Made by a program: the position numbers. Positions 24,001 to 27,000 of a stretch of 43,678 nucleotides of DNA are shown here, one piece after another. Position 1 is the stretch's first letter, and each line of letters starts with the position of its first letter. Origin of the DNA: a virus (lineage: Duplodnaviria; Heunggongvirae; Uroviricota; Caudoviricetes); the IMG/VR virus record IMGVR_UViG_2531839668_000011, positions 1 to 43,678 of that record. One strand, given 5' to 3'.

Positions 24001-27000
24001 TGCTACAGATGTTCAGGGTATAAGGATGTGGTAATTGGTGTACTGGATGCAGCTAAAAAGCATATACAGTGAGTGGTAAGGCCGCTGCAAATCTGGCGTG
24101 CTGACGGGGAAATATTGGCGGGATGAAATAGCCGACGGATTCACAAAAACCGGAGTCCGGCTCCGGTTTTTGTTGTCATGTCAGGGAGATGTTTGTTATG
24201 AAGCCCAGAGGAAATATTTATCTGTATGAAGGAATATGGTAATGCCTGGATTAGTATCATATCTATCATCGACTTCATTCGCGAATGAGATGGCGGAGAT
24301 GCGTCAGCAGGTAATGGAAGGGCAGATTGGTGGATTTCTCCTGGGAGGGGAGAGAGTTAGAGTTTCTTATATGCCAGATACAGGCCGTTTTTTAGCAGAA
24401 AGTGAAGGGCTGGGACTGGTTTATGCAGAATTATTGAATATTGGTTTTAATGATGGAGTTGATGCGCTCAGAAACAGGGTGTTAAGCGTGCTTCCTGGAA
24501 TGGTGGCGCAACGACAAGAGAACTCTTTGCAGGCCAAAATATCGGAATGTACCTTTACTGTTGATATTGAAAAACTTCACTGTCCTGGTGAGGTGCTTCA
24601 ATGTCCAATTACACTGGAGCAGCCTGAAAAAGGTATTTTTGTGAAGAATTCAGATGGTTCAGATGTATGTACTTTATTTGATGCCGCTGCATTTTCTCGT
24701 TTGACTGGTGAAGGCTTACCCCACCCACTGACCCGGGAACCAATAACGGCATCAATAATTGTAAAACATGAAGAATGCATTTATGACGATACCAGAGGAA
24801 ACTTCGTTATAAAGGGTAATTGAAATGAACATTACCCTTTATTTTATTTAATGAAACATCCTGCAAACTGATATGAATTACTGAATGAGGTTTTTATGCC
24901 TGTTACCACCTTAAGTATCCCAAGTATATCTCAATTATCTCCTGCAGGAGTACAGTCTTTGCAGGATGCTGCCAGACTTGAAAGTGGAATAAGAATATCC
25001 ATTGGTAGTGGCCAATATTCTGTTCACTATGTCCAACTACTGGATGGATTTTCAGTTGAACCGGTGAGAGGAGGCTTACTGGATAGGCTATTGGGGCGTG
25101 AGCATCGAATGGAGAGAAGGGCTGTGGCTCTGGAAAGGCAATTAAATGGAGGTGTCGATTTTTTAAGTAGTGTTAATAGCTATTTTCAGAGTGTCATGGC
25201 AGAACACAGAGAAAATAAAACAAGTAATAAAATATTAATGGAAAAAATAAATTCTTGTTTATTTAGACCTGATTCTAATCACTTTTCTTGCCCGGAGTCA
25301 TTTTTGACATGCCCGATAACGCTGGACACCCCTGAGACTGGGGTGTTCATGAGAAACTCACGAGGTGCTGAGATATGCTCTCTATATGATAAGGACGCGT
25401 TAGTGCAACTTGTTGAAACTGGTGGAGCTCATCCTCTGAGTCGAGAACCTATAACAGAATCAATGATTATGAGAAAAGATGAATGTCACTTTGATACAAA
25501 AAGAGAAGCTTTTTGTTGTAAGTGATAATTAATGATATAAATATAGTTTTACGTACTTTTATTTTTTACTAAAGCAAAATTAAGTTATTAAAATGGAGGG
25601 AGAGGAATGCCTGTAGATTTAACGCCTTATATTTTACCTGGGGTTAGTTTTTTGTCTGACATTCCTCAAGAAACCTTGTCTGAGATACGTAATCAGACTA
25701 TTCGTGGAGAAGCTCAAATAAGACTGGGTGAGTTGATGGTGTCAATACGACCTATGCAGGTAAATGGATATTTTATGGGAAGTCTTAACCAGGATGGTTT
25801 ATCGAATGATAATATCCAGATTGGCCTTCAATATATAGAACATATTGAACGTACACTTAATCATGGTAGTTTGACAAGCCGTGAAGTTACAGTACTGCGT
25901 GAAATTGAGATGCTCGAAAATATGGATTTGCTTTCTAACTACCAGTTAGAGGAGTTGTTAGATAAAATTGAAGTATGTGCATTTAATGTGGAGCATGCAC
26001 AATTGCAAGTGCCAGAGAGCTTACGAACATGCCCTGTTACATTATGTGAACCAGAAGATGGGGTATTTATGAGGAATTCAATGAATTCAAATGTTTGTAT
26101 GTTGTATGATAAAATGGCATTAATACATCTTGTTAAAACAAGGGCGGCTCATCCTTTGAGCAGGGAGTCAATCGCAGTTTCAATGATTGTAGGAAGAGAT
26201 AATTGTGCTTTTGACCCTGACAGAGGTAACTTCGTTTTAAAAAATTAAGATAGCAATGGCGGGTTAACTTTTCGTAAAATGAAATTAATTCTCGGTACGG
26301 CATGTAAAACACGGCACCTCGTATGCAAGAACGTACTGCGGTTGGTTGGTGAACTTTCGATAGTGCTAGTATTGGATGATTTCCAGCCGTTACCGATTTT
26401 ATATAACTTCAGTGGAATTATTCAACACACAGGCAAAACGGAATAAGCTGAGAAAAAAAGCGTGCTTTCCCAATCTGGGGTAAATCACGTCTGAATGACA
26501 CCTGAAAACAGGTGGTGGCCTCAAGATGGCTTGGAATATTCTTCTTTAAATGTTATGTAATTTATTGATTTTTCGTGTACGATTTTAAGACATTTATTCC
26601 AAGAAAAATTTTTAACTCTTTGATTTTTCGACTCTGTATCATCGGTCTCGAAAACCGGAGTGGGGGCAACTCCACCGGGGGTTCAAATCCCCCTCTCTCC
26701 GCCAAAATTCAATCACTTATACATCATTAAGTCAGTGACAAAAATCACACTTGGAATTACTTGGAATATTTTCTTGGAATATTTTCAGGTAACGGGACAT
26801 CAAGTGTCGGTGAAACTTTAACCTTCCTGTCATAGATTAGCACTTGCCCCTCGGTTTTGTGACCAGAGAAAAGTTGCTTATCCCGACTGCTTCCTTCATA
26901 GTCTGAAATTCCTTTCGCCTTCAGATCATGAAAGGTGAAGTCGGTTAAAATACCTGAAATTTTGCCTGCGCGATTTCTTGCTTCTACCCACATTTCGTTA

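Follow-up and report, generated by a model that had tools for sequence, protein, structure and literature searches.

An attP-like hybrid site in serU, probably the middle junction of two tandem lambdoid prophages

The viral record IMGVR_UViG_2531839668_000011 (Caudoviricetes), analysed here over its whole stretch of 43,678 nucleotides (the window), contains a fragment of a tRNA-Ser gene that has TTGGAAT repeats on both sides and lies next to an integrase gene (int). The locus raises the question of what kind of attachment site this is: the edge of one prophage next to host DNA, the attP of a single phage or, as the original prediction proposed from the sequence alone, a hybrid site created by tandem integration at one tRNA. 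The comparisons described below point, with high probability, to the last of these, an equivalent of attP composed of the P arm of one prophage (A), a core and the P′ arm of a second (B), P(A)-core-P′(B), at the middle junction of tandem lambdoid prophages in the 3′ half of serU. This site, referred to as attM, and its core have the following positions:

26527..26783, no strand assigned: whole attP-like hybrid site (attM), predicted to consist of the P arm of A, the serU 3′ core and the P′ arm of B
26643..26704, plus strand: core, serU 3′ part (tRNA-Ser, anticodon CGA), in the phage variant with G at 26661 and its pairing partner C

The left limit of attM, at ~26527, is the abrupt onset of conservation at GGCTTGGAATATTCTT in eight different P arms, and the right limit was placed at the third of the downstream TTGGAAT repeats.

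The serU core and its flanks

The core (CGGTCTCGAAAACCGG...CTCTCTCCGCCA) is the 62-nt 3′ part of serU, which begins with the 5′ strand of the anticodon stem (CGGT) and extends as far as the CCA end. This match, already part of the original prediction, is borne out by identity at 62/62 positions to the annotated full tRNA-Ser of genome NZ_CP051001 (L002 13330-13419), and the host-type copy adjoining yodB is identical at 60/62 positions, with two differences. No whole tRNA is called at 26643-26704 by either ARAGORN or Rfam, and the core is therefore a tRNA fragment. In NZ_CP051001 the full tRNA-Ser sits between mtfA and yodB, which identifies the gene as serU.

NZ_CP051001 (Escherichia coli O157:H16 98-3133) is the closest genome and is collinear with the window at 99.98%, save 2.6 kb of tail genes. 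The order of elements in it is mtfA, full serU, intA-xis-exo, the ~33.6-kb prophage A, attM, intB-xis-exo, the 18.5-kb prophage B, a core copy and yodB; both the full serU, ~33.6 kb left of attM and next to a second int, and the other core copies that the original prediction suggested looking for are located there. In an alignment of the three sites, the P′ arm at attM hardly differs from what follows the full serU on its right, the P arm at attM and its counterpart at the right end of prophage B share 87.7% identity, and the tRNA 5′ half is present at the first site only. The first core is followed by P′(A), the second is surrounded by P(A) and P′(B), and the third by P(B) and host flank. Because this three-core layout matches two successive integrations at one tRNA, it argues for the hybrid site of the original prediction, which is further supported by the presence of phage DNA on both sides.

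The most frequent setting of this core, P′ arm and int is the simple attL, with host DNA and serU on the left and a single prophage on the right, to which 54/70 sites in the loci examined belong, as do the hits H9-H25. At attM, in contrast, the serU 5′ half is absent, the sequence left of 26643 reads ...GTATCAT and not ...GAACGGAC, and the flank is a conserved phage P arm that follows tail genes and an NleG effector gene:

25607..26248, plus strand: last cargo gene of A, encoding an NleG-family type III effector (Pfam T3SS_NleG, E 1.7e-43; annotation of the collinear genome)

The presence of this effector gene means that the left flank is phage DNA and not host DNA. Four NleG/DUF1076 effector genes lie left of the site, preceded by tail fibre fragments, head genes, portal, terminase and a lysis cassette, and what adjoins the core is thus the right end of a lambdoid prophage rather than host chromosome, with a P arm that is conserved in other serU prophages at their right ends. 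With a phage P arm directly left of the core and no full tRNA called, a simple attL was rejected, and its probability is negligible.

Phage DNA on both sides would also be found on the vegetative map of a single phage, or after the tandem duplication of one prophage. Tail and cargo genes followed by attP, int and xis is also the order in free lambdoid phages, and DicF, sok/hok and dicB-type early genes occur on both sides of the site, the genes to its right being int, xis, exo, dicB and DicF. Each unit in the collinear genome, however, has an int-xis-exo module and a core copy of its own. The modules shared by A and B are 94.5% identical, their Int proteins are 98% identical, and their cargo is different, with NleG genes in A and nleB2, nleC, nleH and nleF in B. 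Because the modules reach only this identity, the P arms only 87.7%, and the cargo differs, A and B are two different phages and not a duplication, and an origin from one phage by either route is very improbable. The window contains two DicF genes (175-226 and 31158-31209) and two sok RNAs (5801-5976 and 38289-38463), one set per prophage, and with such a set on each side it holds parts of two lambdoid prophages. These duplicate genes could be further inter-prophage repeats able to recombine.

Contiguous P-core-P′ arrangements occur in 11/5426 complete E. coli genomes and at 8 of the IMG/VR loci examined. Their left partners differ, being a B-like, nleF-carrying prophage in FORC 064 and a Lom/YadA-carrying prophage in STEC299, which indicates that such arrays form repeatedly.

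Arm-type repeats, host factor matches and the crossover

On the two strands of the window TTGGAAT occurs six times, and five of these copies lie within 26531-26780, four on the plus strand (26531, 26751, 26761 and 26774) and one on the minus strand (26596-26602); the sole further copy is at 37441. The motif is under-represented overall, as 10.4 copies per window are expected from shuffles. In 1000 dinucleotide-preserving shuffles the maximum number in any 260 bp was 3, reached in 17 shuffles, and never 4 or 5. Five copies in ~250 bp are therefore well above background frequency, and the cluster is not a product of chance. The original prediction had listed the four plus-strand positions correctly and missed the copy on the minus strand. 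The P arm holds two copies, one direct and one inverted, and the P′ arm three, all five of them intact. The minus-strand copy belongs to a stretch (TATTCCAAGAAAA) that matches the third of the downstream repeats, TTTTCTTGGAATA, in inverted orientation at 13/13 positions, and the three P′-arm copies begin at +47, +57 and +70 from the tRNA end. The two arms, of ~116 bp (P) and ~80 bp (P′), contain the following putative protein-binding sites, including matches to the consensus for integration host factor (IHF):

26530..26542, plus strand: distal P-arm arm-type site (putative), cTTGGAATATTCTT, 112 nt left of the core start and invariant in 8/8 P-arm variants
26558..26570, minus strand: predicted IHF consensus match (AATCAATAAATTA), in an 18-nt direct repeat TAAyTyWTTGATTTTTCG; block ATTGATTTTTCGTGTA invariant
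26595..26607, minus strand: proximal P-arm arm-type site (putative), inverted, TTTTCTTGGAATA on the minus strand; CATTTATTCCAAG invariant in the P-arm alignment
26613..26625, minus strand: second predicted IHF consensus match (AATCAAAGAGTTA), in the second copy of the 18-nt repeat
26751..26780, plus strand: three direct P′-arm arm-type sites (putative), TTGGAAT at 26751, 26761 and 26774, with spacings of 10 and 13

The P-arm alignment comprises eight different variants, taken from genomes of E. coli, contigs in IMG/VR and records of phages. Left of GGCTTGGAATATTCTT the variants belong to unrelated families, and from GGCTTGGAATATTCTT to the core they are conserved, with the invariant blocks GGCTTGGAATATTCTT, ATTGATTTTTCGTGTA, CATTTATTCCAAG, TTTGATTTT and GTATCA; both TTGGAAT copies and both TTGAT blocks of the P arm are invariant across all eight. 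From this onset of conservation it follows that the conserved unit starts exactly at the distal TTGGAAT copy. The IHF consensus WATCAANNNNTTR has four matches in the window, two of them in the P arm, and two matches within 120 bp anywhere in the window were obtained in 46/1000 shuffles. The P-arm pair is suggestive rather than strong, and IHF may bend the P arm.

The second and third downstream copies of TTGGAAT lie inside the last 8 codons of int, and the repeats might in principle be a by-product of int coding or of AT-rich composition and not protein-binding sites at all. This is very improbable, since the 12-amino-acid tail of Int concerned is not conserved in homologues, the three repeats of the related phage ST64B, which have the different motif TGAGAAAA, lie outside int and do not overlap it, two of the copies at attM are in the non-coding P arm and invariant across its variants, and TTGGAAT is under-represented elsewhere in the window. 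The idea that the host DNA to the right of serU is a decayed P′ arm was rejected: the two have only TCAAT(C/G)ACTTAT in common, matching at 11/12 positions at the same offset, with a local score that was reached by 117/2000 shuffles and is not significant.

Between these arms, the position of strand exchange can be narrowed down from core polymorphisms. Phage and host cores differ at two paired variable-arm positions, which are G..C in the phage and A..T in the host. Among the sites collected, G..C is found with a P′ arm in 67/68 and A..T with host flank in 3/3, and this linkage of variant and flank places the crossover left of 26661:

26643..26660, plus strand: probable strand-exchange zone, anticodon stem-loop CGGT-CTCGAAA-ACCG

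The tRNA identity also starts at this anticodon stem-loop, and the crossover probably lies within it, as it usually does in tyrosine recombinases that integrate at tRNA genes. Arrival of A before B and of B before A would both yield the observed core pattern G..C, G..C, A..T.

The single exception to the linkage is the IMG/VR locus L084, in which a full serU with the host-type A..T variable arm is followed by a phage P′ arm; a phage allele, gene conversion or a crossover more to the right might account for it. At two other IMG/VR loci, L019 and L038, the same core, P′ arm and int are abutted on the left by a different sequence, which ends in ...TGATGATTGGAC and meets CGGTCTCG at the junction, with 4 more nt of tRNA identity. 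The open reading frame (ORF) adjoining this junction has a GIY-YIG-type resemblance by eye, and what lies on the left at these two loci may be an unrelated element that uses serU as well.

The integrase and its relatives

As the original prediction stated, the downstream repeats adjoin an int gene, which is followed by two further genes on the same strand:

26757..27782, minus strand: int of prophage B, tyrosine recombinase of 341 amino acids, a full-length lambda-Int homologue including the N-terminal arm-binding region MGRRR..LPPNVY
27782..27985, minus strand: DUF4224 gene, 67 amino acids, abutting int (Pfam DUF4224, E 1.7e-15; PHROG 1266 'excisionase', E 4e-21)
28044-30278, minus strand: 744-amino-acid ORF, at the position of a gene annotated as a 3′-5′ exonuclease in the collinear genome

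The domains of Int are Pfam Phage_integrase, Phage_int_M and SAM-like, and in phmmer the protein aligns to solved lambda Int structures over residues 1-313, including MGRRR..LPPN(V/L)Y. Because it has a lambda-like N-terminal arm-binding segment, arm-type sites are to be expected, and it is presumably through this N-terminal domain that Int binds TTGGAAT. Int retains residues matching lambda R212, K235, H308, H333 and Y342, and has the same length (341 amino acids) as the RefSeq protein annotated as intact in STEC299. In IMG/VR, where 80 of the 396 related stretches found were kept, Int is 99-100% identical in all 80. The DUF4224 protein is, from its family matches, the probable excisionase (directionality factor).

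Because the IMG/VR search gave only such near-identical copies, distant relatives of Int (47-62% identity) were sought by tblastn against phage genomes, and their att regions were compared in the same orientation as that of the window:

Window: core serU 3′ part; TTGGAAT at -112 and at +47, +57, +70
ST64B (Int 59%): core serU 3′ part, Salmonella version; TGAGAAAA at -110 and at +47, +57, +70
BUCT709 (Int 62%): core the 3′ part of another tRNA-Ser; three TTAGAAT at +49, +60, +73, with spacings of 11 and 13
Evi (Int 55%): core the same tRNA-Ser 3′ part as in BUCT709; three CTTGGTATA beyond the tRNA 3′ end

The site thus resembles ST64B attP in having the same part of the same tRNA as its core, one repeat at about -110, and three repeats at the same offsets on the other side. 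ST64B presumably integrates at serU in Salmonella, with which the tRNA fragment in its attP agrees. In each of the 4-kb loci the arm motif is confined to the att region. The comparison with related integrases called for in the original prediction gave a geometry that is kept in ST64B, BUCT709 and Evi, with motifs that differ. Arm-type sites would be expected to behave in this way, their geometry staying constant while the motif varies with the protein. This conservation of geometry in homologous phages is the main comparative support for reading the TTGGAAT repeats as putative arm-type sites.

Several observations weigh against the interpretation of attM as a rebuilt attP in a tandem array. 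Both attL and attR lie outside the window, and the layout was read from a near-identical genome and not from the window's own record. Both prophages are defective, B being without any structural genes and A having truncated tail genes. The P′ arm between 26705 and 26750 shows no IHF consensus match with one mismatch allowed, as inspected by eye only and with no tool. The near-identical int genes of NZ_CP051001 and AMSHJX01 are labelled as frameshifted by PGAP; the flagged genes translate uninterrupted over 341 amino acids. Finally, the Int family has Lys at the position of lambda Arg311. This Lys lies in FHDLKA (Int residues 285-290; HDLK versus HELR, with the catalytic Arg311, in lambda) and is invariant, being shared by the window Int, the Int of prophage A, ST64B, BUCT709, Fostie and Evi. 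By analogy, Lys at this position seems compatible with activity because ST64B, which has it, excises in vivo and gives rise to a detectable attP circle (PMC12455584).

Whether attM is currently active in site-specific recombination is a separate matter from its origin, and the chances are about even. The opposing view, to which we give slightly less than an even chance, is that the site is attP-structured but an inert fossil, and that A is lost only by RecA-dependent recombination between the long direct repeats at the cores. These repeats, ~5.3 kb at 94.5% identity (26643-28364 and 28562-32123 versus L002), comprise the core, P′ arm, int, xis and exo of A and B and provide a homologous route to losing A; in addition, both prophages are without essential late genes, and PGAP attaches frameshift flags to int in some records. 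Activity is favoured instead by the open Int frame, at 99-100% identity in the 80 retained stretches, with the length of the intact STEC299 protein and with the five lambda residue matches kept, by the five intact arm-type copies and by the in vivo excision of the homologue ST64B.

Predicted recombination, precedents and neighbouring features

In the mechanism proposed for the tandem array, the attP of each phage would consist of a ~116-bp P arm, in which two IHF-like sites accompany two arm-type sites of opposite orientation (one direct, one inverted), followed by a serU 3′ copy and a ~80-bp P′ arm with three direct arm-type sites, adjoining int. The anticodon stem-loop of the 62-nt serU copy would supply the core-type sites and the overlap region. 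Two successive integrations at serU would then produce B-O-P′(A) ... P(A)-O-P′(B) ... P(B)-O-B′, and the window would hold the middle junction, in which P(A) and P′(B) together rebuild a complete attP. Recombination between attL and attM, carried out by Int and IHF with the DUF4224 protein, would lead to the loss of A, and recombination between attM and attR, by the same proteins, to the loss of B, whilst attL and attR would together release A and B as one circle carrying attM. Though hybrid by origin, the site would behave as one ordinary attP, which is supported by the presence of the same integrase type in A and B, and separate or joint excision of the two prophages through attM is a reasonable inference by analogy with lambda. 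These excision products would be relevant to the separate loss or mobilisation of the NleG or the NleB/NleF effector cassettes.

It is also conceivable, although rather unlikely, that an active attM is an exchange point that reassorts left and right prophage halves together with their type III effector cargo, which would be possible because many serU phages share this integrase type. If true, such reassortment would partly account for the occurrence of one P arm and one P′/int allele with different partners in the window, FORC 064 and STEC299, and the Int family responsible would act with a Lys where lambda Int has its second catalytic Arg.

In classical lambda genetics the junction between tandem lambda prophages is P-O-P′ by construction, and attM is a textbook consequence of tandem lysogeny; it is ordinary, not a new kind of element. 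Lambda attP is ~240 bp long, and the site described here is ~260 bp. As in lambda attP, the gene for a heterobivalent tyrosine integrase stands beside the P′ arm, where there are three tandem putative arm-type sites, with two more in the P arm; an excisionase gene, here the probable DUF4224 one, lies upstream of int, and the P arm has the two suggestive IHF consensus matches. Unlike in lambda, with its 15-bp core, the core is formed by a tRNA gene's 3′ part that has 62 nt of identity to attB, so that the P′ sites are further from the crossover, the arm motif is TTGGAAT, and one P-arm site is inverted relative to the other. The P′ arm without an IHF consensus match by eye, the Lys for Arg311, and the derivation of the arms from two different phages are also unlike lambda.

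An experimental precedent for the arrangement is provided by Sp10, which integrates in tandem with Rac in E. coli K-12 via the resident att site (Asadulghani et al. 2009, PMC2669165). There, as proposed for serU, a second lambdoid phage takes as its attB the att site of a prophage already in place that has the same type of integrase, and a hybrid middle site results; in contrast, that locus is ttcA, its integrase is another one, and the tandem was made and verified experimentally, whereas the serU array was read from a genome. In tandems of phages with integrative and conjugative elements (ICEs), elements that share one att site are reported to accumulate side by side and to be able to excise singly or as a composite (PMC13651849); those described there contain ICEs and show conjugative co-transfer, whereas the serU units are both defective lambdoid prophages. 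The pair Sp11-Sp12 of O157 Sakai was considered as a serU tandem and rejected, since it is located at the ydfJ-rspB (Qin) locus (PMC2608844). A literature search on attP excision between tandem prophages gave no match.

Effector and Stx prophages are well known to integrate at serU (PMC7067040, PMC13188871). In the literature searched, no paper describing the attP of this serU integrase type was found, and such a description is the sole new element here: a first account, at the level of sequence, of attP for a widespread integrase type, with its TTGGAAT arm motif, probable crossover in the anticodon stem-loop and ST64B-like geometry. Otherwise attM shows where one effector-carrying cryptic prophage at serU ends and the next begins, and it has little import beyond annotation.

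Several features close to the site concern the prophages rather than attM. At ~22825-22828 the window is without the 2.6 kb of NZ_CP051001 mentioned above (L001 14233-16825), which span a hypothetical protein, a head-tail joining pseudogene, tail U, a tail protein, gpG and a T fragment, and prophage A is therefore more degraded in the window than in NZ_CP051001. Just left of the P arm, among the cargo genes, lies an ORF of 55 amino acids (26279-26446) to which the RefSeq annotation of the collinear genome gives the name "capsid protein"; no Pfam family matches it, and the label is probably spurious. A regulatory RNA structure past the P arm, acting on the int gene of B in the manner of lambda sib, is unsupported, as folding of the int-sense strand gave z = -0.14 for 26400-26545 of the window and z = -0.53 for the corresponding part of B at its right end, and a terminator scan found nothing in the stretch examined for such a structure.

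The free lambdoid phages ev099 (NC_049953; L005 3997-4531), mEp332 (L004 2997-3531) and PhiR70_1 carry a fossil attR of a serU prophage, consisting of a P arm ~95% identical to 26446-26642, a host-variant core and ~280 bp of the E. coli serU-yodB intergenic region. The intergenic part is 94.6% identical to L001 39031-39489, and the lambda/HK97-type int of the three phages lies elsewhere. It looks as if the end of a prophage had once been captured along with the host DNA next to it.

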